Origin: a virus
Taxonomy: Duplodnaviria > Caudoviricetes
Virus record (IMG/VR): IMGVR_UViG_3300023048_000001
Location: 96,001 to 160,000 of that record
Length of the DNA stretch: 64,000 nt
Direction: 5' to 3' (one strand)
In this document: piece by piece, positions 14,686 to 59,622 of the stretch
How the letters are laid out: every line of letters begins with the position of its first letter
Position numbering within the stretch: position 1 is the first letter of the stretch
Translations under genes and position numbers: made by a program
The notes under the pieces: generated by a model
Database searches by the model: none
Told to the model about the DNA's origin: nothing
Seen by the model: the letters and a program-made list of their open reading frames with translations, nothing else

Positions 14686-14838
14686 AGGCGGAGATAGAGG
14701 GAGTCGAACCCCCAAAACAATGCTTCATCTATTAGGCATGTACTTAGCCATTTTATCACTGGTTGTCTGCGCAAACTTCCAGAGGATTACACATTGCACT
14801 GACACGCATGTCAGCAGCTACCAATTGCTTTTATCTCC
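14686..14838 (-). ncRNA. tRNA-like RNA (153 nt) with Ser-like acceptor and giant variable region
   Basis: GGAGATA/TATCTCC acceptor, G73, D-arm AGC-AATTGGTA-GCT, T-arm GGGGG-TTCGACT-CCCTC; no 7-nt anticodon loop. Confidence 0.7.
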
Positions 14839-14909
14839 ATAAAACTAAGTTCAGGGAATCGAACACCTGAAGTACGTGACACTGTACTCAGCAGCCATGC
14901 TAACAAAGA

Positions 14910-14985
14910 TGGTGGGTTGTGCGGGATTCGAACCCGCGACCACGGGATTAAAAGTCCCATGCTCTACCAACTGAGCTAACAACCC
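14910..14985 (-). tRNA. tRNA-Lys(TTT)
   Basis: Canonical 76-nt cloverleaf with CCA. Confidence 0.95.
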
Positions 14986-15259
14986 GAAACTATTACTACA
15001 CTAATCGCGGTAGCAGCGGGACATTCTTTCCTGTCCTAAGTCAAATGGATTCTCACCATTATAGTCAGTTTTAACTCAACTGGCAAACTTTTTTATATTA
15101 TTCGGTTTCGTAATCAACGGTCGGGTACCGTAGGTGTAGTCGCCATCACCCCAATCTATCAATTACCACTAGCTCTAAGACTACTTTTCCGGCCCAGCGA
15201 TCCACCGAAAGTTTGCTGGGTGAATTACATTATACAGATTTGGAGTAGGTTGTCAACAC

Positions 15260-15454
15260 TTACCAGAAGAACAAACCCATCACGACGCCCAGCGGTGCAA
15301 CAACGATGCCGATGGCACGCAGAGCCAGTTCACCACCGATATCCGACAGTTGAGCCAGTGCAATGATACCCGTGATTGCCTTGACGGCGTTGATCCCCCA
15401 ACCAAGCGCGGCGACGATCCAGAGGATGAAGTAGAGAATTCCGATTTTGAACAT
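15260..15454 (-). CDS. small membrane protein
   Basis: Two hydrophobic segments; own promoter. Confidence 0.75.
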   Translation of the reverse strand: MFKIGILYFILWIVAALGWGINAVKAITGIIALAQLSDIGGELALRAIGIVVAPLGVVMGLFFW

Positions 15455-15514
15455 GTTGGTGAATCCTTGTTGGTATAATGCAATTATACAGACTTTAAAA
15501 CAGGTTGTAAAGCT

Positions 15515-16399
15515 TTACATCTTGCCATAGTTACTCGTTTTGAACTTGTCGCGAAGCTCAATAATCTCCACATAACGACTGTATCGACGCCACGGCAGTT
15601 TCAACATACGAATGAGATTTTCGAAATTCCTGTTATGGTCTTTCACCTTGCGGGAATTGACTTCGTTACTGGAAATCAGGTCACGGCGAGCTACCGGATT
15701 CTTAATAGCATGTTCCACAAAACTCTGTGCGAATGCCATATGTTCTTCCTGCATTTCCCATGTCTGAGCAATGTCAAACATGCGGAATTCCACTGTCTCA
15801 TAGCAACGGCGATAAGCAATGGGACCAGCCTTCATGCTTTCAGCCTGCGACGATGTATATACGTCACTGGATTTTTGTCGGGTGTTTAGTAGCCCATGAT
15901 ACGAGTCAGATGGGCTACAGAATGCAAACATGGCTTCAGGATGATTGAGCATCAGTTGGCGAACCTTCTGCGCTTCGGATGAATCCTTGATGCCGATGTG
16001 TACGTGACCACCACTGCCGCACTGTTCTTCCACCCAGCGGATAAGGCCTAGGTCTTCACAGAGGCCATCGACCTTGTGATAGAACTCGTTGAGCTGATCC
16101 CAGCCAGTCAGGATAGCACTGGACACTTCCACACATCCGGGATCATACCCGAAGGCATTGAGAATATGCATGTTGTCCCGTTCGAACTTAGGCAGTAAAG
16201 CTTCCCGCACGGCTTCGTAGTGAGCTTCAGCAGGCTCACGAAACTGCGAAATAATGTAACGCCTGTTATCGTACTTGTCATGCGGAAAATACTTGTCCGC
16301 AGTTGCCTTGATATGCGGTGGCACCGTTTCGTCAAATTCCCACGGACGCAGACGGGTAAGCTCAACGCCAGCGGTGCGGTGCCATTCGATATTCTTCAC
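15515..16399 (-). CDS. putative amidoligase (COOH-NH2 ligase family)
   Basis: GVEL, CGSGGHVHIG and TVEFRMF motifs. Confidence 0.7.
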   Translation of the reverse strand: MKNIEWHRTAGVELTRLRPWEFDETVPPHIKATADKYFPHDKYDNRRYIISQFREPAEAHYEAVREALLPKFERDNMHILNAFGYDPGCVEVSSAILTGWDQLNEFYHKVDGLCEDLGLIRWVEEQCGSGGHVHIGIKDSSEAQKVRQLMLNHPEAMFAFCSPSDSYHGLLNTRQKSSDVYTSSQAESMKAGPIAYRRCYETVEFRMFDIAQTWEMQEEHMAFAQSFVEHAIKNPVARRDLISSNEVNSRKVKDHNRNFENLIRMLKLPWRRYSRYVEIIELRDKFKTSNYGKM

Positions 16400-16520
16400 G
16401 GGAAGTTACCTGTTTGTTGATGATTTACATTATACAGAAACGAGAATTGGTGTCAACACTTTTCTATAAAAGAAAAGCCCTCACTAGGAGGGCTTTCGTT
16501 TGTTCAGCCGATGATTCGAC

Positions 16521-16739
16521 TTAGAGCGTGATGTGACGCATCTGGCCGTTCGGACCTTCGACAACCACGAAATTCTTGCCGTCCTTTTCCTTGACCACTG
16601 CCGGGACGCCGTACTTGATGGCATTTGCCATGCTGGTGTAATTCTTCGCGGCGGACACGTCGAGCGGACTACGGCCGGTCATGCGATTGGTGTCATTGAA
16701 ACGGGCAGCGGACAGGATGCGGAAGTTGGCGGTGGACAT
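16521..16739 (-). CDS. hypothetical protein
   Basis: Promoter, SD and terminator. Confidence 0.75.
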   Translation of the reverse strand: MSTANFRILSAARFNDTNRMTGRSPLDVSAAKNYTSMANAIKYGVPAVVKEKDGKNFVVVEGPNGQMRHITL

Positions 16740-16815
16740 GTGGTGTGTTCCTTGTTGGTTGGTGTGTAAGTAATTCTAAAAGAATTGAACTAGGCTGTCA
16801 ACACTTTTCTTGAAA

Positions 16816-17166
16816 TTAATTTAGAGCTTTCACCAGCAGGTGCAGACTCTTGAGATACGTGACGGCATCGCCTTCACTGTATGCATGGACCAGATCGTTA
16901 CGTTTAGTAACGTTATCCTCGGTGACGATGCCACGGACCTTGCAGGCCGTCCAATCGATTTCGATAACACGCTTGCGCCAGCCGATGGTGATGATACCGA
17001 AGTCAGTCACCGCAGCGAACCACGGGCTTTCAACTAGATCGGTGTAATAGCGCGGATCACGAGGCCAATACTGGTTGATCATTTCGAACATGTGACTGAC
17101 CTTGATGTCAGCCAGCATGAACAGTGCAGCAGCTTTGTGATGGTCAAACGGACGCAGTGCTGGCAT
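16816..17166 (-). CDS. hypothetical phage protein
   Basis: ORF with AGGAG SD. Confidence 0.75.
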   Translation of the reverse strand: MPALRPFDHHKAAALFMLADIKVSHMFEMINQYWPRDPRYYTDLVESPWFAAVTDFGIITIGWRKRVIEIDWTACKVRGIVTEDNVTKRNDLVHAYSEGDAVTYLKSLHLLVKALN

Positions 17167-17213
17167 GTGTTGCTCCTGAATATGTTTATAGCTTACTGAA
17201 TTCTTTTAAGATG

Positions 17214-18059
17214 TCAAGCAACTTGTGCAAGCATTTCCACTTTCAAAGGGACGAAGTTAACCGTTTCGTCAAGCATATCGAATTCGCTGGGGTAGATGGG
17301 ATTGCGACCGATGCGCATGGTGCGGACACGACCATCCGCGTCACCGTAATAGTTGTCAACCTTGGCAACGGTAGAGGTAATGATAGCTTCCAGCTTGTCC
17401 GTATCAAACGTGATGGACAGTGTGTCACCAAAGTCAACATGACGACTATGGCTCTTAATGGCGATCATATTCATTTCCATGAACTGGATAAGGTCACTAT
17501 TGGAATGCTTGCCATAACGAGCCTGCGCACGATTCCAGCCACGGAATGACCAGATAAGTGCAGACTGAATAGCACCCATCTTCTTTTCGAATTCTTCCTG
17601 CTTACTCACGTCGAACGTCCACGTATCGGTACGCCAGTCATGCTTGGACAGGGCACGACGAATGGTCGTATAGCAATACCTATGGAAGTCACGCACCAGT
17701 GCACGCAGGATAGGATCATCCGGGAGTGGTTCATCGCACGGCTCGACCTTCCATTCACGTTGTTCAAGAAAGTTGTAGAAATCCGTATAGATGGTTTCCA
17801 GCATGTAATCACGGGAATGGTACTGATTCCACATACGCTTACCACAGCGAAACAGGAATGCGGCTCCAAAGGCCATCATTTCATCTTCAATGCTGTCCTT
17901 GTCATCTTCATGATGTTCGTACACATCATGGCACACCACATGCGGAGAATGGCACGGATCGAAGTGCGGACGATTCTCTATGCGCCAGCCACCGCTAGGA
18001 CCAAAGAAATGACCATTGGTGATTTCAGCATAAACAAACTTGCGGGTCTGGATCGTCAT
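17214..18059 (-). CDS. hypothetical protein with HDxxEH...E motif (paralog of 12399-13040)
   Basis: GWRI..FDP..HDVYEH..EMMAFG. Confidence 0.7.
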   Translation of the reverse strand: MTIQTRKFVYAEITNGHFFGPSGGWRIENRPHFDPCHSPHVVCHDVYEHHEDDKDSIEDEMMAFGAAFLFRCGKRMWNQYHSRDYMLETIYTDFYNFLEQREWKVEPCDEPLPDDPILRALVRDFHRYCYTTIRRALSKHDWRTDTWTFDVSKQEEFEKKMGAIQSALIWSFRGWNRAQARYGKHSNSDLIQFMEMNMIAIKSHSRHVDFGDTLSITFDTDKLEAIITSTVAKVDNYYGDADGRVRTMRIGRNPIYPSEFDMLDETVNFVPLKVEMLAQVA

Positions 18060-18164
18060 AGGATTCATTCCTGTGGTGTGTTGATGGATTTAATTATACA
18101 CACCACCATCACTGATGCAAGTCCTTTTAAGAATGAAATTGAGGTTTTATTTTACACAAACGTA

Positions 18165-18220
18165 TTGACTGATTTCGATTTCTATTATAAAATAGGATGG
18201 AGGCTGGAAGACTAGCCTCC
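18165..18220 (+). promoter_or_regulatory. Repeat A copy 10
   Basis: TTGACT-N17-TAAAAT-AGGAT followed by hairpin GGAGGCTGG-AAGA-CTAGCCTCC. Confidence 0.75.
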
Positions 18221-18494
18221 CGAAACTGAACAAATAAAAAGCCCCGACCAACGTGGCCGAGGCTTTGTGTATCATTCAAGTTTGTATCATCTAAGTGTTA
18301 ATCAATTCTCAATATGGTTGTGAGCGGATTACATATAGATACCCTCGTTCATGATTTGATGTTACTGACAATGTTGCGTCTGAGGTTACATCTTACGGCA
18401 CCACCAACACTTTGTAAAGCTTTTATTACGTCTTGTTCTTGTGACGCATGTACAGGATGAACGCCACCGTTAGCACGAGCAGAATGACCACGAC

Positions 18495-18860
18495 TTACTC
18501 CTTCAGGTTGGAAACGCCAGTCCACGGAATTACACTGGCATCGGTCAGGTTGAACACGTTACCACGAGCGAAGTTCTTGGCCGGAGCCGACCAGCTTGAC
18601 GCCTTGAGGATGTCACCACGCTTGAAGTAGACACCCTTATCCGACTTGACGGTATTGTCTTCCTTCACGATGAAACCGAAAGCCGAACCCGTCTTCTCGA
18701 CAAGCACACCATTGCGGGTATCCATGGAGACGAGACGCACCAGCTTATCACCTTCAAGATACATGATGCACTTTCCGAAGCCATGCTCATTGCCACCGAA
18801 CTTATTGAAGTCACGGGTGACGAGGGTGTTGATCAGAGGAAGGGTATCTTCGATATTCAA
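18495..18860 (-). CDS. conserved phage hypothetical protein
   Basis: GDILKASSWSAPAK..ARGN motif common in large phages. Confidence 0.7.
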   Translation of the reverse strand: MNIEDTLPLINTLVTRDFNKFGGNEHGFGKCIMYLEGDKLVRLVSMDTRNGVLVEKTGSAFGFIVKEDNTVKSDKGVYFKRGDILKASSWSAPAKNFARGNVFNLTDASVIPWTGVSNLKE

Positions 18861-19342
18861 TGTGGTGTATCCCTTGAGTTGATGGAAGAATTATATAACG
18901 TAATTCAGATGGTGTCAACATGTTTCGGCATATTTCTACATGCTTCTAGTGCTTCTACCATCTGACGCAAAATATGGGCTACCTGTGTACCAGTGTACTC
19001 GTTTTTACCACTCTCAATCGACTGTGCAATGGTTTCAACATTGACAGCCCTTCCACCTTCACGAATGATCATAATGATTCCTCTATGTGAAGGTAGTGTA
19101 TGCAATCTCACATCTTTAAAACAAGATGCGGTGCAACAATCATTAGTGGGAACGGATGTAAGGAATAGCCACAATGCCCACTACAACGATGATGTACAGG
19201 ACAGCGCTAAAGAAGTTCGAAAGTGACATGAGTCTATCTCCGTGGTGTGGAATCATTATATTTAAGATGATCCAGCATGTCAACACTTTGAGCATAAAAA
19301 AAGCCCCCAATGTGGGGGCTTTTGAGTATTACATGACTTGGA

Positions 19343-19729
19343 TCAGGCCAGCGAGGCGGACACCGAACGCGTGAACTTGAGGGCATCATTCGAATGAAGC
19401 TCGATGATATTCGCGGCCTTGCCACGGCTACCCGGATTCGCCTTGAGTTCACCGACCTTCTTGACGATGCCGTATTTGAGCATCATGGAAAGGTGCGGAC
19501 CTTCCAGCGGGACGCCATTGAGCAGGACACCGGCGATCAGTTCACCCGTGGTACCGCTGATGACTTCATTCTGCGCCGTGGCGGCAGCAGCCTTGGGAGC
19601 CTTCGGTGCGGACTTCTTGGCAGCAGGTGCAGCAGCTTTCTTCTCGACGGGCTTCTTTGCCGGAGCAGCCTTGACATTCTTGACGGTGGACTTGGGAGCG
19701 GCAGCGGCGGTCTTCGTGGACTTCGACAT
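19343..19729 (-). CDS. putative DNA-binding protein: histone-H1-like N-terminal tail plus winged-helix-like domain
   Basis: AAPAKK repeats; GSRGKAANIIE wing-like motif similar to 11690-12145. Confidence 0.6.
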   Translation of the reverse strand: MSKSTKTAAAAPKSTVKNVKAAPAKKPVEKKAAAPAAKKSAPKAPKAAAATAQNEVISGTTGELIAGVLLNGVPLEGPHLSMMLKYGIVKKVGELKANPGSRGKAANIIELHSNDALKFTRSVSASLA

Positions 19730-19839
19730 GGTGTGATCCTCAGGTTTGTTGTTGGTGGACTGGTTTGCTTCCCAGTGATTAAAAGTATACTCCACTCTAA
19801 AAGATTGTCAACACTTTTTTAGAATGGAATGAACTTTTT

Positions 19840-20553
19840 TTACAACCCCTTGAATTCTTTGGGCATAAGCTTGACATTGCCAATGCTCAGGGATTCAAAG
19901 TTATTCTCATTGAACGCTAAGTTCTTGATTTGCGTGGTCTTTGGTAGCTTTTCCTTGATGGCATTGCTGATGATGACAGGAATACCACTGTTTACAGGCT
20001 TGACTTGAGCCGCTTCGATCACGTTACGGGATACTTCAATGATGTTGAGCATGATAGAGCCAACCATGGGCAGACCCGTTTCCTTATCTAGTACAGGATA
20101 GCTCTGCTTGTCATCCTTGTTGACTTCGGTAACAAAATTGATCTTGACACCGTTGGTCAGTGTGAGGTAGTTACGATCATTGCTGGCACGACGATTGTCG
20201 TCACGATCACCATCCAAGGTTTTCTTGAGTGAGGCAATCTCAACCGACTTTCGATCTTCGAAGGCCTTGTTCAGATCAGCCACGCTCAAACCCTTGATCT
20301 TTTCAGATTCTTTGAGGATATCCATGATATCGCCCAACGTGAGGGCTTCGATTGCCTCAATCCTGCGCTCATAGAGCTTCGCAGTAGAGAATCGTGAAAT
20401 GAAGTTGATATCGGCCTTATAGCCGGAACTAGCCACATATCCCTTGACAGTAGCGAATCCGCCACCGTTGGAATCCATGAGGCTTTCCAGTGCAGCGGCC
20501 TGACGTGCTGCCGCAATGAACTTTTGACCGTTATTTTCGATGATGACGCGCAT
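19840..20553 (-). CDS. hypothetical protein (237 aa)
   Basis: Long ORF with promoter and SD. Confidence 0.8.
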   Translation of the reverse strand: MRVIIENNGQKFIAAARQAAALESLMDSNGGGFATVKGYVASSGYKADINFISRFSTAKLYERRIEAIEALTLGDIMDILKESEKIKGLSVADLNKAFEDRKSVEIASLKKTLDGDRDDNRRASNDRNYLTLTNGVKINFVTEVNKDDKQSYPVLDKETGLPMVGSIMLNIIEVSRNVIEAAQVKPVNSGIPVIISNAIKEKLPKTTQIKNLAFNENNFESLSIGNVKLMPKEFKGL

Positions 20554-20716
20554 ACGGGTGTTCCTTATTATAGTTTCATTCTAAAGGGAAATGGATCAAG
20601 TGTCAAGAGGTTTGTGTATGAAGGTCATACACGAAAATTTGATTATCTGTTTGGTACCTTATCAACATAGCAAAAAGGGCAGCGGTTTCCCGCCACCCTT
20701 CATACTTGATCGGAGC

Positions 20717-21322: not shown

Positions 21323-21403
21323 TATTATGTAATCCGTTTAGTTATGTGGTGTTGGTGTGAAGAGAACTGTAATGGGCGTGTTACACCCTGTCAACAACTT
21401 TTT

Positions 21404-21898: not shown

Positions 21899-22035
21899 TT
21901 GCCCTATCCCTCGTTTGAGTATGTGAAGAGTGTAAAGGGTGATTCACACATGTCAATAGGCTGTGTAACATTTGTGATGCTCTTTTTCGGTGGGGGTTTT
22001 GTTTCATTGATACCTTCAAAGATTGTGAGGGTAGT

Positions 22036-22172: not shown

Positions 22173-22571
22173 ATGGTTTGTAAAGTTATCGTTAAGCCAT
22201 TGTTAGCTGTTGAGCAACCGGTCATTGACCAGTTTCGTCTACACAATCATGGCTATGAAGAAGGTAGGATGCTGGAAGCCATTGACTTTGCTTACAATGA
22301 AAGGAACCTTGGCGAGGATGACAATAGAGTATACCGGGCAGTGACCGCTGGTTACATTCTGGATGATGGTGAGTTACATTCATGGGGTCTGATATACGAG
22401 TTGTATGAGTCCCGTGGGGTGTATTCCTATCACATGGATGTATACACGGTACCCAAGGCCAGAGGGATGGGTTACGGTACACTGATAGTGAAGACCCTCA
22501 AGCAATTACATGATGGCTACATCTATACGTACAAGGCACATTCTTCGATCTACACCAGACTAGGGATGTAA
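22173..22571 (+). CDS. GNAT-family acetyltransferase
   Basis: VYTVPKARGMGYG acetyl-CoA binding motif. Confidence 0.75.
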   Translation: MVCKVIVKPLLAVEQPVIDQFRLHNHGYEEGRMLEAIDFAYNERNLGEDDNRVYRAVTAGYILDDGELHSWGLIYELYESRGVYSYHMDVYTVPKARGMGYGTLIVKTLKQLHDGYIYTYKAHSSIYTRLGM

Positions 22572-22595: not shown

Positions 22596-22622
22596 ATAAA
22601 GGCCCCTACAGGGGCCTTTGTT

Positions 22623-26024: not shown

Positions 26025-26122
26025 AGATCAATATCGTTTAGATTCGGTTCATATGTTAACGGCATAATGACTTCTGTGAATTTGGCATCAACGTTTGAGC
26101 ATCATATAACAGGTTGTTAAGA

Positions 26123-26509
26123 ATGAGTTACGTAATCGTCTATAGTGAACCACTTGAGTCAATTAGTTCGGAAATGCGCAAAGAGCTTTACACACTGAAC
26201 TCTGGTACCAATGGAAGGATGCAATGCAACCTTGCATATTACGGTACACAGAATGCTCGCATGCAAAATGCTACAGTGTTCTATATCCTCAAAAGGAATA
26301 AAGTCGTTTCATGGGCAGTTGTGTATAATCCAACTCTTTACCCAAATCGATTCTCCAAGAAATTTGAAATGGATATCTTCACCCGTAAGTCAGCCCGTGG
26401 TAATGGCTATGGAACTGCTGTTGCGGAAACAGTGAGAGATGCATTTAAAGGTAAACTCATTCATGCGTGTAAGGGCATGACATCAGTCTATAGACGTGCT
26501 GGTATTTAA
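26123..26509 (+). CDS. GNAT-family acetyltransferase
   Basis: IFTRKSARGNGYG motif; paralog of 22173-22571. Confidence 0.75.
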   Translation: MSYVIVYSEPLESISSEMRKELYTLNSGTNGRMQCNLAYYGTQNARMQNATVFYILKRNKVVSWAVVYNPTLYPNRFSKKFEMDIFTRKSARGNGYGTAVAETVRDAFKGKLIHACKGMTSVYRRAGI

Positions 26510-26554: not shown

Positions 26555-27058
26555 ATGGACACTATTATCTTCTTTGATCTTGAAAATACTCTCATATGGG
26601 ATTGGACGGATAACCGCGATCCCATGTGGCTAAAGCACCCTGAAATCACCGAGTGGATTTTCGCTCAAGGTGATTTCCGTGCTGGTCTCTTTTCATGGGC
26701 TATCTGGAATCCTAAAGATATAGCCGAGTTCAGTGAAGAGGGTGGAGTCCGTGAAGCCATCGAAACAACCCACCAGTTTCAATTTGAGGATGATCTAATC
26801 ATCACTCGTGGAATGCTGGGTGACCGCTTCAGGAAATGGTTTAAAACTATGCCTTGGGTCTCTGACGATGATTGGTTTGAGTTCTTCAAGAAGCGCCAGA
26901 CCATCCAAGAGCTATGGCTCCATGAATTCAATCAGCCGAACACTCGTGTTGTTCTATTGGATGACACTGTAGAGAACGTGACTATGATTAATAATAGTGT
27001 CGAGAACAACCGTCTAGAGTTGATCGACCCATGGACCTTTAAGGGAATGTTTAAATGA
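26555..27058 (+). CDS. HAD-superfamily phosphatase-like protein
   Basis: N-terminal FFDLENT (DxE variant of DxD) and C-terminal LLDD. Confidence 0.6.
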   Translation: MDTIIFFDLENTLIWDWTDNRDPMWLKHPEITEWIFAQGDFRAGLFSWAIWNPKDIAEFSEEGGVREAIETTHQFQFEDDLIITRGMLGDRFRKWFKTMPWVSDDDWFEFFKKRQTIQELWLHEFNQPNTRVVLLDDTVENVTMINNSVENNRLELIDPWTFKGMFK

Positions 27059-27770: not shown

Positions 27771-27899
27771 GTGGTCAACAACATGTAACTCACCGCTAGG
27801 GCGGATATATTCACCAGTAATATATGAAGGTGCGATCCCTTGAGACAGCGTTAGACGTTCTATATGAGGGTGCGATTCCTTCCTGTTGTTGTGAAGCCA
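27771..27899 (+). ncRNA. candidate structured RNA with two T-arm-like hairpins
   Basis: Follows TTGACA-N17-TAATAT (27735); closing stem CAACAACA/TGTTGTTG; two TATATGARGGTGCGATYCCTT units. Confidence 0.55.
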
Positions 27900-28110: not shown

Positions 28111-28238
28111 GATCCCTTAGCTCAGTGGTCTGATGGAAGAACAATCATTCTTAGTGTAATCAGAATGACCTTCGGAAGTCTTAGAGCGGAGAACTCTAAA
28201 TCCTCGCGTCGTGGGTTCGAATCCCACAGGGATCGCCA
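28111..28238 (+). tRNA. amber suppressor tRNA (CTA) with ~50-nt D-loop insertion
   Basis: GATCCCT/AGGGATC acceptor, GCTC/GAGC D-stem, anticodon loop CTCTAAA, T-arm GTGGG-TTCGAAT-CCCAC, G-CCA. Confidence 0.8.
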
Positions 28239-41948: not shown

Positions 41949-42796
41949 CGGGCTGAGAATAGACCCTGACACGTTGATACTTTAGTTTGGATTATGGCAT
42001 CTTGCGGATGCTTTCCCACTTTTCCACTACAACCATCCTTCCGAATGCATCATAGTATATCAACATAGCAGCCTTATTTAAGTGGTGGCATTTCCACTGT
42101 CACCGTAACCTATTCGGCATGTCCTATTCAGTCTGCCTTGCGAGCAGCAAAGGGTTCGACCCCATCCTTGCAATTCTTTACCAACATTCATCGGCCTTGC
42201 GAGCTTCCGAATGACTCTATTGTCTTACGACTAGAGCATTATGCTATTTTCAGTTACGACCGAATCCGTCTTTGCGTTTTTTCAAGGTTGGATTTGAACC
42301 AACGTATGATCGTTTAAGAGACGATTGCTTATCCACTAAGCTACTAGTTATCCCACTAAGGTCGAGCGGATTCATAGGTCCATACCCTTTTGGGGTACAA
42401 AATTCTATCCGACCTCATCTGCTTCTCACCCGCTAAGGTTACACTCGCAGTTCGTTTCACGACTCTTTCAAGCCATTAACAATGTATAAACGCATTCGTC
42501 CGCTAAGACTCACACCCTCATACTACCAATTCATCATCCACTGGTTCAACGTTAGACCGGCTAGAGGTTTCTATTCCTCTCATCACTCACCGATTGGCCT
42601 GTGATGGTTTTAACCGCATTGAATTCCAATATATCTCCGAAAGCTTCCGAAGCCAGAGCGTTCCACTCTGTGATATGTTGGCTTTTATAAACGAGTCCAT
42701 TTTCATGGTGGGACGCTGGTAGGCGCATTCCCGTTTGACACCTCACGGTATCTTATCTCTCCCTCATAACCCTTTCGAATTATGAGGTACTACACA
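41949..42796 (-). ncRNA. large (~850 nt) structured RNA, GOLLD-like, with nested tRNA-Lys(CTT) module
   Basis: No credible ORF; many hairpins with GCAA tetraloops; long-range pairings to the 3' end; sits in a tRNA region. Confidence 0.65.
42280..42350 (-). tRNA. tRNA-Lys(CTT)-like module lacking a proper acceptor stem, nested in the large RNA
   Basis: D-arm GCTT-AGTGGAT-AAGC, ATCGT-CTCTTAA-ACGAT, T-arm GTTGG-TTCAAAT-CCAAC. Confidence 0.65.
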
Positions 42797-42848
42797 TACG
42801 TTATTCCTTTAACGTTTCGTTCCTCTAAGTGGGAACTCATCAGTGTGT
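42792..42848 (-). ncRNA. hammerhead ribozyme, type I
   Basis: ACACA-CTGATGA-GTTCC..GGAAC-GAAA-CGTTA..TAACG-TA-TGTGT: full core, GUA cleavage triplet. Confidence 0.9.
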
Positions 42849-42903
42849 GACTTGATGTAGAACATATTAAAGTGTTTAACTATTCCTGTCAACACTTAAA
42901 TTG

Positions 42904-43402: not shown

Positions 43403-43489
43403 TGGTATACCAGACGGGATTCGAACCCGCAATGCATCACTGCAACTGAGTGAAAGTCAGTCCACTTTGTCCAATTTGTATACTGGTAT
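43403..43489 (-). tRNA. tRNA with TTC (Glu) anticodon on a class II long-variable-arm body
   Basis: ATACCAG/CTGGTAT acceptor, ACTGA-CTTTCAC-TCAGT, V-arm TGCA-GTGA-TGCA, A73-CCA. Confidence 0.8.
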
Positions 43490-46993: not shown

Positions 46994-47070
46994 AGGGAAC
47001 TGTGATGGGATTCGAACCCACGATACCTTCCCTTCCGGGTGAGTCGCTTAACCATCAGCGTTCACAGTTC
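46994..47070 (-). ncRNA. tRNA-like RNA with His-type acceptor and no anticodon loop
   Basis: GAACTGTG/CACAGTTC stem, normal D and T arms, CCC-GGAA-GGG hairpin in the anticodon position. Confidence 0.65.
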
Positions 47071-51030: not shown

Positions 51031-51108
51031 TGGTGGCCAGAGGTGGATTCGACCCACCATCTACCGGTTAAAATACCGGTGATTTTGAACCGCTTAAACT
51101 ATCCGGCC
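51031..51108 (-). tRNA. atypical tRNA with 8-nt anticodon loop (TATTTTAA)
   Basis: GGCCGGA/TCTGGCC acceptor, ACCGG..CCGGT stem, A-CCA. Confidence 0.65.
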
Positions 51109-53847
51109 ATTAACTTGTGAAACTATTTATGTATATTAAACTAGTTGTGAAATTAAAGCAAGGGATTCTTTCGATCAATTACTTGAAGTTCAATTTCATC
51201 AAACTTTGAGCCCCATCCACTAAAGATGGCATCTGGTTCTTCACCAGTTAGCTCAATATAAGCCTTACGAATGGCTTGACGCATTGATAAATCTGCACCG
51301 GGAGGAACTTCAACACCATCTACGGAGCCGATCTTGCATTCCCATACGAAACGTGTACTATCTAATACTGTATCAGTCATACATTATCCAGTTTAATATT
51401 CTTTGAAGCTTCAAATAATTCATCTTCGGTATTATAAAAATTACCTGTTTTAATTAGAAGTGCTTGTAGCTCACGTTCATTGTACGTTTCGGCAACGAAT
51501 CCACCATAATAGAAGATGGTTCCGATGAGGTGTGCAATTTTCTTATGATCAGGCTGGGTGATCATGGAAGCTAGTGAGCGAATGTATGTTGAGGTATGAG
51601 GGCCAAGTGTTGTCCCAAGATCGATACCATCTTTCTTGAGTGCATCGGCCAATTCTGTTGCGATAATTGTAGCTGATAATCCTTCGGCGCTCATGCTTAA
51701 TCTTCCTTTAAAAATTCTGGTGCAGTTTTCATAGATCATTTAACCTTTTGACTTCAGTAATTGCGTTGTTCCAGCCTTCACGATAACCTCTACGTTCTGC
51801 CATCCATTCAAGACTGATTGGTGCACAAACTTCAAGACCGATAGGCTTTGGTAGTTCGATGATTTCGTAATTAGCAGCCATGTAATCGAGTGTATCTCTT
51901 ACCAAGGTGATAAGAGCATCACGATCAGCTTTCGATCCTTGAATTTTTGCTAGAGTGAGGCTTTCACTCATACTCATTAGTTGAAGTTTACTCATAATTA
52001 TCCATTAATAGCAAGATTGTTTCCTACCTATGAAGCATACCAAGTGTATACCCTTCATACGTTCATTATAACATTGAAGTTATGAGTAGCGGAAACACTC
52101 TCTACAGTAGACCTTCTCAGGTCGTCGCTGAGGCTCGTTACCGTTCCGACTCCCTCAACCTATCTAACGCATTCTACTTTATGCGCTTCGGTTTACTTTA
52201 ATATGTGATACCAAGCTTTTCTATTTGATCTTTACCATGAACTGTAAATTCTTTTCCATTATGCATGGTAATAATATACTCATGATAAACAGCAGTTGAT
52301 CTTAATTCAATACTAGAAATGCTATTAGGATTAATCCAAATCTGCATATCTTTACCGCCATAATTTGCTAGAAATCTTGATGTCAATCTAATAAGCTCAG
52401 TCATGTTACGAAATCGTCTTAATGAAATTGGTGCAGTCTTCGACCGTATCAAAGCCGAGAGTTACATATGCTTGATTCTTGTGTGTACGATCGATGGAGA
52501 ATGGAATATGCTTGGCCTGATGTTCTCGCCAGAATCGCTTGAGGACTGCGGTTTCAGTTGGGCAACCATCATCTTCAACGCATACCTTATCAGATGCTTC
52601 GAATTCTTCAATTTGATTATGTAGAGCCTGACAAGCTTCGAATCCTGTTGCGAATGTATTGCCATGGTTATTGTCAATGGCATTGGCAATCAGAATCATT
52701 TTATGTGCATGATCCTCATAGCCATTACCTGAAAAGTATTGGGCATGGTCACGCAGATATTTTTCAGCTTCATCAAGTTTCATATTAGCTCCACAATGGT
52801 TTCAAGGATTTTAACTATTATTTGAAACGCTCAGGCATCACTAGCACAGTCATAACGAATACCTAGTGATGCAAGCGTGCACTCATCAGGAACAGTGAGT
52901 TCATCGTAATGAAAACCATCACCATCACAACCGAGCGAATCATAATCAAACTCACCGTTATGATATGCCGCTTCCTTCTTCTTAATCCACTCTGCATTGA
53001 AAGTGTATTGTGCGCTGGATGAGCCATCACCATTGTTGCTGATTAGAACGAAAAGCTTCTTTGCCATTGTATTATCCAGTTGTTGATTAAATGTAAATCA
53101 TGTTGGTAATGACTTCCAACTCTACGGGGATTGATCCCGTTACCCGTCCATTTTCATGAAGCGCGGAGATAGAGGCACGACAGTCCGTGCATTAATGATT
53201 TACTTTATAAACTTCACGATCATTTAAAGCTTCTTCACGATCAGCTTTGGTATGTTGCTTTCCCCAAGCATTTAAGCCACCGAAGTGAGCATTATAATCT
53301 TGAGAACTCTTCTTTAATTTACGTAAGGAAGTCATTCTAACTAAACGCTTGGTATCTCTATCGACATAGCCTTTATAATCATTAGCTATATCAAGATCAT
53401 TTTCATGATAAATTCTTACATTCTTTCCAGAATCTACAACCTGAACATGATGGTCATCAATGATTCGCCAAACTCGTCCAAACATACCTCCATCACGAAC
53501 ACCATCTTTGTTCAATGGGAAGGTGATATCATTACGTTTAAATTTCATTTGAATGCCTTAGGATATTTTAGCTTGGTGTTCTCGCCAGAATCGTTTAAGG
53601 ACTGCGGTTTCAGTTGGACAACCATCGTCTTCAACACATACCTTGTCAGCAACTTCAGGTGTTAACTCATTTAATGCCTGATATGTACGGGCTACTAGCC
53701 AACCTTGAAATCCAGCTTCGATTGCAAGATTAATATATGCACCATCAGCATTAACATTAAAATAATGTGCTTTATGTGCTGTATCAGCTTGATCTTGCAT
53801 TGCTGCTTCAAACAGCTTACGTTCGTTGGACATATAAATCCTGATAT

Positions 53848-53943
53848 TGATGCTAGGAAGAAGGGATTCGAACCCTTGGTTTGATGTTATCGCACATCCG
53901 CTCTTTAAGGCGGAACACTTTAATCCTCTCGGTCACTTCCCGC
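53848..53943 (-). tRNA. atypical Leu-like class II tRNA (8-nt anticodon loop, bulged acceptor)
   Basis: TCCGC-CTTAAAGA-GCGGA, long V-arm, AAGGG-TTCGAAT-CCCTT; ends A-TCA. Confidence 0.55.
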
Positions 53944-53951
53944 ATATTAAC

Positions 53952-54026
53952 TGGTGCCCTGACGTGGTTATCCTCCACGGTTGCTTCCCTAAGCGGGAAG
54001 TGTTCTTATATCTAAACTATCAGGAC
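53952..54026 (-). ncRNA. tRNA-like RNA with non-canonical T-loop AGGATAA (CTT in anticodon position)
   Basis: Four paired stems, A-CCA end. Confidence 0.75.
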
Positions 54027-54032
54027 TGAATT

Positions 54033-54107
54033 TGGTGGCTTGCCATGGTTATTCTCCACGGTCGTTCCTCTGAGTGAGGGTGCTTTAATTCATTAAGCTA
54101 GCAAGCC
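54033..54107 (-). ncRNA. tRNA-like RNA with non-canonical T-loop AGAATAA
   Basis: GGCTTGC/GCAAGCC acceptor, A-CCA end, short anticodon hairpin. Confidence 0.75.
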
Positions 54108-56489
54108 ATAATATAGTACAATTTTTAAATCGTTAAATCAAGCGTCTGATTCGTTGTCGGTTGTTTCGGTTGTGTTATCGGTCTCATAGAAACCAAGATC
54201 ATCTAAGTAAACCAATGTTTCAGTCACTCCACGCTCTGTGGCTGGTGTAACGTCTGTTGTGTTTTCTTCTTCGGATTCAGGAATTGAGAAGATAATTTTA
54301 ATACATTCTTGTAGTAGATCGACATCAGTTGCACCGCATACTACTGCACCAGCTAATTGGGTAGCAATCTCATCGCGAACTTTCTTCTTAAACTTCAAAC
54401 CGTTTACTTTTTCAATATTGTTAATAGATGCTTCAATTACAGTAGGAATAGCGTTCATTTGTAACCTTGATTATGAATTAATGATACCAATCAACACCAT
54501 TATTGTCAACAATATCTTCAGCTTTCTGCTTACTAATACGTTTGACACTTACATCTACAATGCTTTTAATCTCTTCGGCACGATGCTTTGCATACTGCAA
54601 TGCTTCTTTAGCATTCTTGGATGACAGCACGATATCGGTCTGCAAGAAGCCATCATCAAACTTAAAAGTGACCTGAAAAGCCAGCATTAGTTTATCTCCG
54701 AAATGGTTTATGTGTCATCGCCATCACGCTTAAGGCGAACACCCTGACCAAGAAGAATATACTCCATGATAGCGAGCCTTACAACACTTTTCATGGAATG
54801 ATAGAAAAGACTTCCACATCCCTTGGTCATATAATTCAGTGCTTCATCACTTGCATACTGTTCCTGTTCAGGCGTAGCAATAGGAAGACTTTTGTAAGCG
54901 GTGTAATTAGGGTTCATTACTATTCCTTAGGTAGGTTTTTGCTGCTATCTAATAGGTCTTGGACACTAAGTAACACTGTTGCATCATTTACAAGGCTACT
55001 GTCCATGTTGGCACATAGTATCATTTCAGCTAGTTCTAATGCAATAGAATGACGAAGATTTTCATCCAGCTTCATCTTAACTCTGGACTCAATTTGATCA
55101 AGCGAGAAGATGAAGACTTCTGGATATGCTCTATCCATTACCAGTATCTCGTAATTGTATCAATAGCATCAAATATACTGATTTCATGGATTAAACCAAC
55201 CTGTTGGAATGATGAATAGCTTCATAAGCTCATCATGTTTTCTGGCCTTTTCAGCCTTCTCTTCATCAAGACGAGCTTTCAGATCAGTATATGTGATACT
55301 GAAAGGTAAATCAAGTTCACTTTTGAAATCCATTAAGAAATTATAGGGGCCATGATATCGATAATTACCAAAATACCTACCACCATACAGGATTGATTCA
55401 TTATCTATAAGATGCATGATTAGACCTTGATAGAGAATTTCTTTATTTTACCGCACTTGGAACATTCCTTGATCCACCAATGTGAATCATAGAAATCCCA
55501 TCCCATCTTACGGTCTTTCCCCTGCTTGAGTGTTTCACTATAACTGTGATCGCAGAGGCCTAGAATGTACTTCAAAAATAGCAACATAAATTACCTAAAT
55601 TGATTTATATGTCAAAATTTTATGTTATTAACGTGTTTCTTGACTTATAAGTCATCTGCCATAGCCATGGCTTGTTCAATACTCAATAACACATCACTAT
55701 TGATTAATTCTTTTATATATGCGATTGCATCCTCATGCCCAAACACTTCACCGTATGGTGTATGAGTAGAAACAATCTTGCATGGGTCTTGATCCATCTT
55801 ATCGTTGTTAACTAAATTTGTCCAGTCCATTATCTTTCCTGAATTAAAGAAAGGAGCCTAAAGGCTCCTTTCCATTACTTCTTTTTGCCCTTGGATTCGG
55901 ACTTGTCCTTCTTCGGCTTTTCAGCCTTGGACTTGTTGAACTCAGGACCATTCAGCATGTCGCGCCAAACCTTCTTTTCGGCTGGCGAAGTTGCAGTGCG
56001 CAGATAGTGACGAACCTGCTTGATGGAAAGCTGTGCATCAAGTGGACCACGATAGTTCATATCAGAAAAAGCCATTTTGTATCCTTAGTTGTTTAGTGTT
56101 GTTGAAGATGATTAGTATATCGAATTTAAAGTAGATGTCAAACGTACTTATAAAACCCATCACTGGTACAGAAGTTAACGCCAGCACGGATCAATTCAAG
56201 AACATCATTAGTTGAAAGGGTTGCAAACTTGAATTTGTCAACTTCGAAATAGATTTGATCATGTTCGGCAGCAGCAATGACATCTGCATTAGGACTCACT
56301 TTAACCTTGTCCAGAATAATTAATGCATTAATAAATGCATGCGGATAATAGGTAAAGATATAATCTTCATCTTTACCATGAAGACTTTCGTTATTTTCAA
56401 AGAATTCTCCAATATAGACATCAATGGATTCTTCCTTGTCCCACTTATCACCTTCAAGCGTTTCAATATCAAGTAACATGTTAGTTCCG

Positions 56490-57626
56490 TTATTCGGTTT
56501 CTGTTAGTTCGGGATCGTCGCCAATTCCGAACTCCTTATAATGCTTGATCATCCATGTCTTGTAGTCGTTCTCCTTCCCAAGGTAAAGGTTCATCGCAAG
56601 GCTGAAATACAGACGGTCTAGCTCTTTCTGTCCAGCAATCGCATAATCCTTTCTCTCTAGATCACTATTTGAATTATAGAACCCAACAACATACTTGTCA
56701 ATATTGCGATAAATTGCCTTGACCTTGAGTTCCATTTCGTCAATGAGTTTGAGCATATATTCATCATACGAGAAGTTAGCACGGGCATCATCGTGGCCTT
56801 CGTTCACTACCACAATGAAGCGCTTCTTAGGTGAGTTAATATCATCCTTAAGATTGTGTAGTGAACAATACCAGTCAGTCTTGTGCTTCGTTAGAACACC
56901 CTCAACACCAATGATGTAGCCCTCTACTCCCGTCTTTGCTGGAATTGAATCAACAAATGCTGGAACATCATCAACCTTATAGCTCTTTACCAAATAATCA
57001 AGAACAAGTGGATCAAATGAGACCATTGTCATTACGACTTCATTATATGCCAGTACTTTACCATCATCACGATCACGAACATGGAGAACAGTCAGCTTAT
57101 CTTCCTGATAAGGAAGAACAATACGGTGTACCGGCGAAGTCCATTCCAAAGAAACAGAGAATTTAGCCTGTTCCATGTATTCTAAATATTTTAGCAATCT
57201 ATCATTTTCGCCATTGAACAAAAATTCCATGGCAGCATTTGCCTGCTCTGAAGCTAGCGATGTTTTGCTCTTCAGATATGTGTTTCCATGGATCATGTAA
57301 GTGGTCATAATGCTACCATCCATCTTATCCATGACAATATCTGCCTTGGAGAAGTCGATGTCCATAACCAAAGGATTTTCCTTAAAATTAAAGAATTTTC
57401 GGGGTGGCAGGGAAGCCAGACGCTTCATACGTCCATCTTCCATTTCAAACATGATACCACGAGCCTCAAGAGCCGAAGGCTTCAGGAAGTCGCTATAGGA
57501 AGCTAGACGATAGTTGAACACACGGAAGGTAACACCTTCCATCTGATGTTCTACGATATAAAATGGTGAGTCAGGAGCATGAATAAGCTCCATCAACTCA
57601 TCATATAGAGTTGATTCATAATGCAT
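56490..57626 (-). CDS. rnlA: RNA ligase 1 (T4 Rnl1/gp63 family)
   Basis: FNYRLASYSDF, EARGIMFE, KFFN, motif I KMDGS, EGY and KTDWYCSLH; 378 aa. Confidence 0.9.
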   Translation of the reverse strand: MHYESTLYDELMELIHAPDSPFYIVEHQMEGVTFRVFNYRLASYSDFLKPSALEARGIMFEMEDGRMKRLASLPPRKFFNFKENPLVMDIDFSKADIVMDKMDGSIMTTYMIHGNTYLKSKTSLASEQANAAMEFLFNGENDRLLKYLEYMEQAKFSVSLEWTSPVHRIVLPYQEDKLTVLHVRDRDDGKVLAYNEVVMTMVSFDPLVLDYLVKSYKVDDVPAFVDSIPAKTGVEGYIIGVEGVLTKHKTDWYCSLHNLKDDINSPKKRFIVVVNEGHDDARANFSYDEYMLKLIDEMELKVKAIYRNIDKYVVGFYNSNSDLERKDYAIAGQKELDRLYFSLAMNLYLGKENDYKTWMIKHYKEFGIGDDPELTETE

Positions 57627-59371
57627 GATTTGATTCCTTTCAGGAATTTTAATTAAAGGGTTGGGGTAGTGATCGGCGGTGGCGGTACGAGATTAATCCA
57701 TGACTTACCGAAATCTTCAAGTGGATTAACGCCAAAGCTCAGATGGCGATTGGAAGTTCCAACATTTGAGAATGTTGCCTTATGGCTTTCAGCGCTTACA
57801 CAGAAAGCATTCAAGCGCATAAGATGCGCGAGCTTCTTGGTAAGTTTCTCAAATTTGGGCTTGGGAACAAACTTGGTGTTGCTCAGGTAAGTAGTAATTT
57901 CCTGATGCTTCTTGACCACATAGCGGTTCAGATCGATAACGTTAGACATATGAGATATAGCCTTGATAGAAAGTAATAAAAGGGACCACCAAACCCAAAT
58001 ACAGTTAATGACATCATCACTGCAAATAGGAACCAAAGAACAGAATCAATTTTCTTCATGGGGGTATCCCGGCTATGCTAATATTTAGCAAGAATACTCA
58101 GTAAAGATCGTCATCCTTAGGATATTTTTCCTCATGTTCGACGCCAACATTTACAATAAATGTCGGAATAGCTACAAATAGGATGAAAGCTCCTAGGTAC
58201 CACAGAAAGAATGTAAGCATAATGTATTATCATCCGTAATGCAATCGTTGTCTTTGTAGATGCAGCACAAACCTATTACAATAAATTCCATAGAATTACA
58301 TTATAATAATCAGACCAATCCTTAGCTTGATCTGGAATTTGAGGGAATTTATTTGAACGTTTTATTTCATCGCCCTTTTCCAAAGCTTTATAAGCCTTCT
58401 TAATTAACTTATACATCTTCTTGCATTTTTCTTGATCATAATAATCATTGAGGTTCATCAGGCCGCTACTGGCGATGGATTTAGCACTAGTTAATCCGGT
58501 ACTGTATGATGCGGTAACAACAATAAATTCATCGAATTCTTTCATAACTTTAACTGAAAGATTTTCATTAATATCTACTATATAATAATTTAAATGACTA
58601 GAATAGGAAATCCAACGCCATGAACCACTCATGACTTTGTAGTAGAGCATATCTATTCCAGAATTTTCAGTGATCATATCCAAATTTTTCCATCTTTGAG
58701 TTTTACATTTTTAGATTCATGAACAGGACTTCCCGTGTTCACATCGATGAATGTGTCACCGTGATAAGGATTATAGCGAACTTGAGTGTTAAATACATCC
58801 TTGTAGATGTTTCTAAATGCATCAGTATCGATGGGTTTGATATATCTGTCACATACCACATAGGCATGAACATTTTTATGTTTGGTTCTCAACACCTTCT
58901 GGCGGCCAACTTCATACACTTTAAATGAAACATTATGAGCATATAGTTCGTCCAGATGTGCAATCACCTTCCCGCGATATTTCACAGAGAAGGTGTTTTT
59001 ATGCAGGTTTCTATAAATGTAGAATTTAGCGGACATCAATTCAATTTCTTTACCTGACCGCAATGGGTGCAGTAAATACGTGCCAGACGGATGTTATATG
59101 GATAAATGTATTCAAGTGTTGATTTTCACTCGTTTAGTGAAATCCTGATCAACATGCTTTACAAATTCATGTTTGCAGAACCAGCTTCTAATAAGATTGA
59201 TCATAAAATTCTCAAATTGGTGGAGCATTAACGATTCGAACGTCATCAGCCCTACCACCTCTGATACGTCATGGACAGTAGTACTCCTGACACCATCATC
59301 TTTATCAGTCAGTTTCAAGGGCGGCGGTTTAATGTCGCTGGGTTTTCCAATTCCCTATTACTCCAAAACTT

Positions 59372-59496
59372 TGCTTTCGGAAGGATTCGAACCTTCTTGT
59401 CCATTCCTCAGGATAAGCTCAGCCTTAACAATTATGTTCCACGGAATCGAACCGTGAGCCTTATCTTTTCGGGTCGGTCCCCTAGAGTTTCGAAAG
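59372..59496 (-). ncRNA. tRNA-like RNA with two T-arms
   Basis: GCTTTCG/CGAAAGC stem; CACGG-TTCGATT-CCGTG and GAAGG-TTCGAAT-CCTTC. Confidence 0.7.
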
Positions 59497-59503
59497 CATA
59501 AAT

Positions 59504-59622
59504 TGGCAGATGTGGATGGATTCGAACCACCGACAGCTATGTCATATTGTCCATTCCTATACGGGAGGACTCAACATTATGCACCTCTCCACGAGGCCAC
59601 TCTTCCACTGAGTTACACATCT
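59504..59622 (-). ncRNA. tRNA-like RNA (119 nt) with 5-nt anticodon loop and ~50-nt variable arm
   Basis: AGATGTG/CACATCT acceptor, ACTC-AGTGGAA-GAGT D-arm, T-arm, G-CCA. Confidence 0.75.

Follow-up and report, generated by a model that had tools for sequence, protein, structure and literature searches.

Conserved tRNA-shaped RNA families with a rebuilt elbow among the tRNA genes of a clade of soil jumbo phages

The tRNA genes of large phages, which can number in the dozens, are read mainly as aids to codon usage or as an escape from host tRNA nucleases; defences that target tRNAs exist, and phage tRNAs escape them. The tRNA cluster of phage T4 also encodes the stable RNAs C and D (species 1 and 2), which are of unknown role and are processed together with the tRNAs, and T4, like the phage studied here, encodes an RNA ligase 1 (Rnl1). 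In jumbo phages, tRNA arrays with suppressor tRNAs occur without recoding, for example in XacN1 (PMC5852040), the combination of Rnl1 with tRNAs is common, and a bacterial Y-RNA-like RNA, YrlA, with Ro/Rsr has been mentioned (PMC7824862). Furthermore, tRNAs in the linker of the GOLLD RNA and GOLLD inside phage tRNA islands with an HNH gene are documented (bioRxiv 10.1101/2024.12.08.627333; PMC6582537). The stretch analyzed here (the window) comprises 64,000 nucleotides (nt), bases 96001-160000 of the 174.6-kb IMG/VR virus record IMGVR_UViG_3300023048_000001, which is about 50% complete according to CheckV. A previous reading of its letters alone (the sequence-only reading) listed twelve aberrant tRNA-like genes alongside about seven normal tRNAs. 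The set is heterogeneous and consists of a module of a GOLLD RNA, probable decoders with add-ons, conserved non-decoding families and a minority of degenerate or lineage-specific elements. The clade to which the window belongs also keeps non-decoding look-alikes of tRNAs: families A and C, the types represented by the elements at 51031 and 46994, and the larger RNAs at 27771, 59504 and 59218. Of the new results, family A stands on the firmest ground; this tRNA-shaped family with its rebuilt elbow is well supported and has apparently not been described before.

The Rnl1 protein of the window is also found on a 346-kb contig and the record is therefore part of a jumbo phage of ~350 kb; the clade of the window consists of soil jumbo phages with genomes of about this size. 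The only dataset with the DNA in full is a leaf-litter metagenome, which is probably the source sample, and megablast and blastn searches with window pieces found no close GenBank phage, the only match being an 89-nt stretch of Rnl1. Relatives were reached via Rnl1 (353 homologues at E <= 1e-10, present in all relatives), two other open reading frames (ORFs), and DNA patterns. They are the loci L002 and L186 of one phage (Rnl1 83% identical to that of the window), L003 and L189 (67%), L006 and L190 (58%), the further relatives L008 and L071, and the complete 350-kb IMG/VR genome G001, which was taken whole (54%). A related-locus search from Rnl1 in IMG/VR returned no relative and the exact T-arm pattern of family A had 0 matches there. 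In the JGI metagenomes a pattern of the family A T-arm type matched at least 119 stretches; among the best 80 listed, L071 was the only real member and the rest were chance matches. The window's own record is labelled G000 and its part beyond the window end L159 (window-scale positions 64664-74062).

The members of families A and C on the record are:

53952-54026, minus strand: family A member, 75-nt cloverleaf (reading, fold, alignment)
54033-54107, minus strand: family A member, 75-nt cloverleaf (reading, fold, alignment)
L159:2681-2756 (window-scale 66681): family A member beyond the window, CCA-ended
L159:2490-2594 (window-scale 66490): family C member beyond the window, CCA-ended

Both family A members in the window end in ACCA. 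The first combines the T-loop AGGAUAA with a D-loop that has no GG (AGAUAUAA) and a CGCUUAG loop without U33, and the second combines the T-loop AGAAUAA with the D-loop AAUGAAUUA and an "anticodon" loop of 5-6 nt. Overall, family A has 16 members in six phage lineages. In a model-guided alignment 95.2% of the cells are paired and 17 out of 21 pairs have changed on both sides; a value as high was reached in 0 of 500 shuffles, and slid partners were paired in 34-50%. A MAFFT alignment that was not fitted to the structure gave 94% paired cells and 12 compensated pairs. The conserved parts are the GG-less D-loop (AGAUAUWA or AAUGAAUUA) and the T-loop (AGRRUAA), whereas the "anticodon" loop varies between 5 and 10 nt with no conserved base and no U33 (11 members checked). 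Family C carries the T-loop UGAAAGU and likewise a GG-less D-loop; it is kept in L186, L003, and G001 with a compensated "anticodon" hairpin, and its T arm and ACCA tail also occur in several unrelated IMG/VR contigs. The gene order family A, tRNA-Arg, family C, tRNA-Ser is common to the window phage and L003, and within this order the true tRNAs are nearly identical between the two whereas the mimics diverge more and are still paired.

Among all minihelix elements collected, the D-loop GG is present in 72 out of 73 elements with a canonical T-loop and absent in 13 out of 14 elements with an NGAA-type T-loop (Fisher p = 2e-13). The D-loop GG and the T-loop U-Psi-C are replaced together, that is, in both halves of the elbow. 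A third elbow type, with the T-loop CGCAAAY and a GG-less D-loop, was observed in G001 (26819-26892 and 61581-61660).

Rfam, direct reading, and folds revealed tRNA-derived structure at all twelve listed sites and at one additional site (59218-59364). The count of about seven normal tRNAs was likewise correct, with seven ordinary tRNAs recovered by both ARAGORN and Rfam:

14177: tRNA-Met
14910: tRNA-Lys
28009: tRNA-Leu
41534: tRNA-Glu-CUC
43118: tRNA-Glu-UUC
50574: tRNA-Pro
50660: tRNA-Pro

Five of the aberrant elements also match the Rfam tRNA model RF00005 above its gathering threshold of 29 bits (42279-42350, 43406-43489, 46997-47069, 51034-51108, and 59507-59622; 32.5-49.3 bits) and 53853-53942 falls just below it (27.8 bits). 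The remaining six (14686, 27771, 28111, 53952, 54033, and 59369) have no Rfam match even at E <= 1; direct reading and minimum-free-energy folds show in each a closing or acceptor stem of 7-8 bp next to a T-type hairpin with a 5-bp stem and a 7-nt loop. A strict scan for a 7-bp acceptor stem, an adjacent hairpin of 5 bp with a 7-nt loop, and an NCCA tail found 22 matches in the 175-kb record compared with a mean of 2.2 in 20 shuffles. Of these matches, 18 lie within the tRNA-bearing part of the record, and 28111, 43403, 51031, 53952, 54033, and 59504 are among them. The same scan found 48 matches in G001 and 0-5 in shuffles. As far as the RNAs are concerned, the observation holds and is not explained by chance. 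Without the CCA criterion the scan was too noisy (178 matches, ~105 in shuffles), and the 144 calls of a relaxed ARAGORN run with introns were mostly noise and were set aside.

NCCA is encoded at 28111, 43403, 51031, 53952, 54033, 59504, and 59218 and is not encoded at 14686, 27771, 42280, 46994, 53848, and 59369; together with the folds and the strict scan, this agrees with the sequence-only description of mostly paired acceptor and T stems, many with CCA. A 7-nt anticodon loop with U33 and a purine at position 37 is found only in 28111, 43403, and 42280. Elsewhere the loop has 6 nt (51031), 5 nt (59504), or 8 nt (53848) or is a tetraloop (46994). The canonical elbow (G18G19 in the D-loop, T54-Psi55-C56 in the T-loop) is kept in 28111, 46994, 51031, and 59504. 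No Rfam family other than tRNA fits the elements, families A and C stay below every Rfam threshold, and no intron or ribozyme covariance model of Rfam matched in the window (E <= 1) or in L003, L168, and L178 (E <= 0.1).

Besides families A and C, the following elements are conserved or, beyond the window end, non-canonical and CCA-ended:

46994-47069, minus strand: tRNA-like RNA, 76 nt (Rfam 32.5 bits, fold)
51031-51108, minus strand: tRNA-like RNA, 78 nt (ARAGORN "??", Rfam 49.3 bits)
27773-27891, plus strand: RNA of ~120 nt, listed as 27771 (reading, fold)
59504-59622, minus strand: tRNA-like RNA, 119 nt (Rfam 38.9 bits, fold)
59218-59364, minus strand: additional tRNA-like RNA, 147 nt, not listed by the sequence-only reading (reading, comparison with L186)
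L159:664-757 (window-scale 64664), beyond the window: Ser-UGA-like tRNA with the non-canonical T-loop AGCGUGA, CCA-ended
L159:9936-10062 (window-scale 73936), beyond the window: tRNA-like RNA, 127 nt, CCA-ended

The 51031 element has a 6-nt "anticodon" loop and an ACCA end, and its orthologues (L002 8750-8827 and L189 5188-5265) keep the loop length while the loop sequence varies (ATTTTA, ATCTTA, TTCGAC); a comparison of the window with L002 shows compensation in five stem pairs. Such freely changing loops, in this type as in family A, cannot read a fixed codon. The RNA at 27771 has an 8-bp closing stem and two T-loop-like hairpins (loops UGCGAUC and UGCGAUU) and heads a small unit that continues with tRNA-Leu, tRNA-CUA, and a terminator-like hairpin after a promoter-like site in front of the RNA. 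Its orthologue (L003 8658-8814; 81% mean column identity) contains a 24-nt insert and a compensated hairpin (ATATAT/ATATAT to GCAT/ATGC). In the additional RNA at 59218, the acceptor stem GGAGUA/UGCUCC contains one mismatch; the D arm and a canonical T arm are present together with a long internal domain, and the RNA ends in ACCA. Its orthologue in L186 (~151 nt) has a different "anticodon" hairpin.

In 59504 the acceptor, D, and T arms are intact, the 5-nt "anticodon" loop is accompanied by two extra hairpins in the variable region, and the end is GCCA. Its orthologue L186 9550-9664 is 90.5% identical with acceptor pair 1 compensated, whereas the orthologue in L189 is reduced to a bare acceptor and T-arm minihelix, suggesting that the constant part is the acceptor/T core. 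In 46994 the anticodon loop is sealed (CCC-GGAA-GGG); the element sits between two ORFs, 9 nt after the first, and its orthologue (L189 10960-11033) is 90% identical with an acceptor pair changed from C:G to U:A and the loop from GGAA to AAAGC. The acceptor/T minihelix is the minimal substrate of RNase P, and plant mitochondrial t-elements and mascRNA are tRNA-like cleavage signals. The folds might accordingly act as RNase P and RNase Z signals that cut polycistronic transcripts and define or stabilize the ends of neighboring mRNAs and large RNAs, with the RNAs themselves having no further role. This would account for the constant core, for the bare minihelix in L189, for the position and CCA-less, sealed form of 46994, and for 59369 and 27771, which also lack CCA. 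However, families A and C lie between genuine tRNAs, which already provide RNase P sites, and they encode CCA and conserve the D-loop and T-loop, neither of which a cleavage signal needs, making this explanation quite unlikely for the set.

In the conserved non-decoding families, the stack of acceptor stem and T stem is maintained by selection, in most cases along with an encoded NCCA, and in families A and C so is the alternative elbow. Since the anticodon loop is free in length and sequence, the conserved families cannot be codon readers. The explanation favored here, and held to be rather probable, is that tRNA-derived duplicates were remodelled into selected tRNA-shaped RNAs that act via the acceptor end and the elbow and not by decoding. 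The tRNA-derived RNA genes, interleaved with the many tRNA genes of the clade, would have arisen by duplication followed by remodelling. The elements lie 6-10 nt from one another or from tRNAs on the same strand, and strong sigma-70-like sites stand upstream of arrays (e.g., 50779-50751 and 54509-54481). With genuine tRNAs only a few bases away on the same strand, the mimics are probably transcribed together with them and trimmed likewise. Maturation by the host tRNA pathway, with RNase P at the 5' end and CCA at the 3' end, would yield stable tRNA-shaped molecules, and these may engage or evade tRNA-binding factors via the acceptor end and elbow instead of serving as ribosomal adaptors. The conservation pattern argues against a bait for anticodon nucleases and against mimicry of one acceptor identity; it suggests instead that some partner recognizes the unusual elbow, or that host factors which recognize the normal elbow are avoided.

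Decoys for tRNA-targeting toxins were among the roles suggested by the sequence-only reading. Mimics of this kind would soak up immune enzymes that attack tRNAs, either anticodon nucleases or modifiers of the CCA end (pyrophosphokinases of the toxSAS/CapRel type, MenT/AbiEii nucleotidyltransferases, GNAT toxins). The retention of acceptor stem, T stem, and NCCA alongside the loss of decoding would suit such a role, as would the many copies (16 family A members in six lineages) and the tRNA enzymes of the clade. Besides Rnl1, G001 encodes a Pth2-type peptidyl-tRNA hydrolase (200989-201393) directly upstream of a tRNA array (201675-205525) that mixes tRNAs with anticodon-less and insert-bearing members, and a CCA-adding enzyme (299744-300106). 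In the window's own record there is only a weak PTH2-like match (G000:38254-38502), and no Pth2 was found beside the arrays of the window; a link between the mimics and the Pth2 and CCA-adding enzymes of the clade is possible. An anticodon nuclease is a poor fit as the target, since the anticodon loop is the least conserved part and often not loop-like, the opposite of what a bait needs, whereas conservation is highest in the elbow loops. A role against acceptor-specific enzymes is at odds with acceptor sequences that vary freely. The conserved part is moreover an odd elbow that host tRNAs lack, and none of the elements in the window is linked to a defence or anti-defence gene. Decoys are therefore regarded as an unlikely explanation.

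Two of the listed elements are probable decoders:

28111-28238, plus strand: amber-suppressor tRNA with a D-loop insert (reading, fold)
43403-43489, minus strand: tRNA-Glu(UUC)-like, 87 nt (ARAGORN, Rfam 48.3 bits)

The 43403 element combines a canonical anticodon loop with an extra (variable) arm of 14 nt and ends in ACCA. In its orthologues (L189 14773-14858 and L006 19142-19225), four stems (acceptor, anticodon, variable, and T) carry compensatory changes; the element is probably a working variant tRNA. Long variable arms on identities that normally belong to class I are also seen elsewhere in the clade: besides Glu-UUC (window 43403-43489), they occur on Gly-UCC (L189:3679-3769 and L190:7457-7548). 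The 28111 element has intact arms, a canonical CUCUAAA loop with a CUA anticodon, a GCCA end, and a 50-nt hairpin inserted in the D-loop right after GG, and is probably a decoder with a D-loop hairpin as add-on. Its orthologues (L006 8025-8101 and G001 26899-26975) lack the insert, which has no other copy and is lineage-specific. In relatives, suppressor-type tRNAs for ochre (UUA; L190:8848-8922) and opal (UCA; L003:9290-9365) are found where the window phage has amber, and the ochre type adjoins a family A member. Stop-codon reassignment behind the suppressor was considered and rejected: reading TAG as sense barely lengthens ORFs, TAG is the rarest stop (20/215), and the genetic code is standard.

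Further insert-bearing, otherwise intact tRNA genes are present in relatives:

L003:9142-9269: tRNA-Leu(UAA) with a 43-nt hairpin in the anticodon loop
G001:129-322: insert-bearing tRNA
G001:7990-8129: insert-bearing tRNA
G001:204985-205113: insert-bearing tRNA

The G001 genes include a tRNA with a D-loop insert of ~120 nt and a His(GUG)-like tRNA with an insert of ~52 nt at position 37/38. Overall, the inserts in tRNAs of relatives are hairpins of 43-122 nt in the anticodon loop (34/35 or 37/38) or the D-loop, and two of the carriers still score as Rfam tRNA (41.9 and 48.7 bits). Every insert is unique, and the idea of repeated mobile mini-elements was rejected on this ground. The aberrant genes might thus be special decoders or intron-bearing tRNAs, with the amber suppressor reading stops, the 6- and 8-nt loops acting in frameshift tRNAs and the inserts being spliced by a phage endonuclease and Rnl1. 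The canonical anticodon loops and complete identity-bearing stems of 28111 and 43403 fit this proposal, as do the inserts in the otherwise intact Leu(UAA) and His(GUG)-like tRNAs, the presence of Rnl1 in all relatives, and the precedent of jumbo-phage suppressors that act without code change (PMC5852040). Against it stand the lack of stop-codon reassignment and the loops of family A and the 51031 type, which vary freely between orthologues. Furthermore, none of the inserts has a match among intron or ribozyme families, and all fall short of the length of group I introns (~200 nt or more); no bulge-helix-bulge motif is evident in the folds of the insert-bearing tRNAs, and no splicing endonuclease was found. 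As an account of the whole set this is very unlikely.

The remaining separate elements are degenerate or have a narrow distribution:

53848-53942, minus strand: degenerate class-II-shaped tRNA copy (ARAGORN anticodon "taaa", Rfam 27.8 bits)
59369-59497, minus strand: 129-nt RNA with two T arms (reading, fold)
14686-14838, minus strand: 153-nt tRNA-like RNA (reading, fold, minihelix scan)

In the 53848 copy, the loop has 8 nt (CUUAAAGA), C1 and A72 are mismatched, the D arm is weak, and CCA is missing. Its orthologues (L189 3679-3769 and L190 7457-7548), by contrast, are intact: both are genes for tRNA-Gly(UCC) in which the acceptor stem is of the Gly type, the variable arm is long, and U73 and CCA are present. 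The 59369 RNA has a 7-bp closing stem (GCUUUCG/CGAAAGC), two canonical T-arm hairpins, and no CCA; it is missing from the syntenic site of the close relative L186 and has no other copy. In 14686 a 7-bp acceptor stem, a D arm, and a canonical T arm (TTCGACT) are followed by the tail GCC-T in place of a full CCA, and the anticodon arm is swapped for a 6-bp hairpin with a UGCG tetraloop and an extra domain of ~75 nt. A ~40-nt motif (ACAAT..GATAACGAG.AATCGACC.TGGCGTATCA) is common to window 14640-14680 (minus strand) and G001 ~61110-61150, in both cases downstream of tRNA-Lys-linked elements and upstream of a small ORF.

If the elements were dying duplicates in a tRNA region of fast turnover, copies such as 53848, the lineage-specific 59369 RNA and 28111 insert, and an element without an orthologue such as 14686 would be expected. 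Relatives do show, in agreement with the covariation check proposed by the sequence-only reading, compensatory stem changes in every family with orthologues, and since these changes keep the stems, the aberrant elements are not a result of random decay. Both elbow partners are replaced together, and synteny is kept across phages whose Rnl1 proteins are only 54-83% identical. Neutral decay is refuted for families A and C, 51031, 43403, 46994, and 27771, and is highly improbable as the general explanation. The earlier statement that decay would not produce the pattern thus stands for most elements, by stem compensation and coupled elbow replacement, and does not extend to the degenerate 53848 and the lineage-specific 59369.

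Several points weigh against remodelled duplicates that act via acceptor end and elbow. The 53848 copy looks degenerate next to its intact orthologues, the 59369 RNA and the 28111 insert could each be recent and neutral, and for 14686 no orthologue was found, only a positional analogue in G001. One carrier of the CGCAAAY elbow in G001 is a tRNA with a canonical CUA suppressor loop, so that a rebuilt elbow alone is no proof of lost decoding, and the elbow loops could be conserved because folding requires it and not because a partner binds them. As a class, promoter-like sites are not enriched (62 compared with 64.9 in shuffles), and among the RNA runs searched for window 53800-54200 none contained this sequence. 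The transcription, processing, stability, and aminoacylation of the mimics are all predictions from sequence.

One listed site, 42280, belongs to a larger RNA:

41950-42900, minus strand: GOLLD RNA (Rfam RF02032, 201.8 bits, model positions 1-416 at 41950-42417)

The match exceeds the gathering score of RF02032 (150 bits) and covers the conserved 3' domain, and the surrounding ORF-free region reaches ~42900. The tRNA-like part (42279-42350) lacks an acceptor stem; the other three arms (D, anticodon, and T) are present, with a CUU loop. Thus 42280 is the tRNA module of the GOLLD RNA and not a separate gene. The region (~960 nt) shows 92.6% identity over 964 nt in L189. No GOLLD was found in the relatives G001, G002, and G003, and G001 still has family A. 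The RNA is flanked by the tRNA-Glu genes 41534 and 43118, with an HNH gene nearby. Upstream of it, at 42792-42865 (minus strand), lies a hammerhead-like core (CUGAUGAG, stem II, CGAAAC, stem III, GUA), directly after a TTGACA-N17-TAATAT site (42892-42864); in Rfam it reaches only 17-18 bits (Hammerhead_3, RAGATH-1), far below threshold. The sequence-only reading had treated all sites as one system. This does not hold: one of the elements is part of GOLLD, two are probable decoders, another is a degenerate copy, and yet another a lineage-specific insertion.

The same reading placed RNA-repair enzymes, namely Rnl1, a nucleotidyltransferase-like protein, and a HAD-like phosphatase, as well as two GNATs in the window. 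The protein genes that bear on these assignments are:

56490-57626, minus strand: T4-type RNA ligase 1, Rnl1 (Pfam PF09511, RNA_lig_T4_1, and PF20819, T4_Rnl1_C)
22173-22571, plus strand: possible GNAT acetyltransferase, borderline (PF00583, Acetyltransf_1, 19.7 bits, cut-off 20.7)
26114-26509, plus strand: possible GNAT acetyltransferase, borderline (PF00583, Acetyltransf_1, 20.1 bits, cut-off 20.7)

Rnl1, with its two Pfam domains, is solid and is the sole RNA-repair enzyme confirmed in the window. The two GNAT candidates do match Acetyltransf_1, both just below the cut-off. There is no HAD_2 match anywhere in the record and the sole NTP_transf_2 match lies ~20 kb before the window, so that the T4-type repair set is reduced to Rnl1 without HAD_2 or an in-window NTP_transf_2; no search was aimed at Pnkp. 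A Pfam scan of 50 window ORFs (10 also with PHROGs) found no other RNA-repair enzyme. It otherwise gave two cell-wall hydrolases, a sub-threshold HNH match, PcfJ, DUF7275/DUF7277, an L5 gp82-like protein, and, from PHROGs, some families whose function is unknown. The proposed link between the mimics and an RNA-repair toolkit therefore comes down to Rnl1, and the frequent company of Rnl1 and tRNAs in jumbo phages means that it does not tie the mimics to RNA repair.

A bolder and rather doubtful extension would make families A and C a new RNA class with an "orthogonal" elbow, in which the G19:C56-type contact is swapped for an A/U-based one. Such RNAs would be made by the host tRNA pathway and be invisible to the ribosome and to elbow-reading factors, and they might serve a dedicated phage partner or as a bait over tRNA ends, possibly with Pth2 and the CCA-adding enzyme; the insert-bearing tRNAs would perhaps be matured by protein-dependent Rnl1 splicing. 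If the RNAs are stable products, they would represent an unrecognized layer of phage RNA biology beside the giant RNAs of the GOLLD type and a natural experiment that could separate the parts of the tRNA fold required for processing from those required for translation. For annotation, standard tools miss the mimics or call them pseudo or undetermined tRNAs.

Among the described systems, GOLLD (RF02032) is matched exactly by 42280, with flanking tRNA-Glu genes, a tRNA-like module inside, and an HNH gene nearby, whereas the other elements of the window are separate small genes outside the GOLLD RNA. Canonical phage tRNAs (RF00005) share with the elements the 7-bp acceptor stem, the 5-bp T stem, the encoded CCA, and the tandem arrangement with tRNAs, and an amber suppressor without recoding is present in the window phage too. 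Unlike these tRNAs, most elements of the window have no 7-nt anticodon loop with U33, families A and C have neither G18G19 nor T-Psi-C, and inserted hairpins of 24-120 nt occur. The T4 stable RNAs C and D, as these are described, are two in number, and both the elbow variants and the families seen here clearly exceed that. In YrlA, transfer-messenger RNA (tmRNA), mascRNA, and t-elements, tRNA mimicry likewise serves processing or the binding of proteins instead of decoding. Of these, YrlA and tmRNA retain canonical T-loops, which families A and C replace, and ARAGORN with tmRNA search found no tmRNA in the whole record. In the literature searched and in Rfam, no description was found of CCA-ended cloverleaves with AGRRUAA or UGAAAGU T-loops or of hairpin inserts in the D-loops of phage tRNAs, and the earlier suggestion that undescribed families are present is borne out to this extent. 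GOLLD-embedded tRNAs, variant phage tRNAs, suppressors, and tRNA-like modules in other RNAs are already known; conserved non-decoding tRNA-shaped families with a rebuilt elbow are, by the same literature, apparently new.

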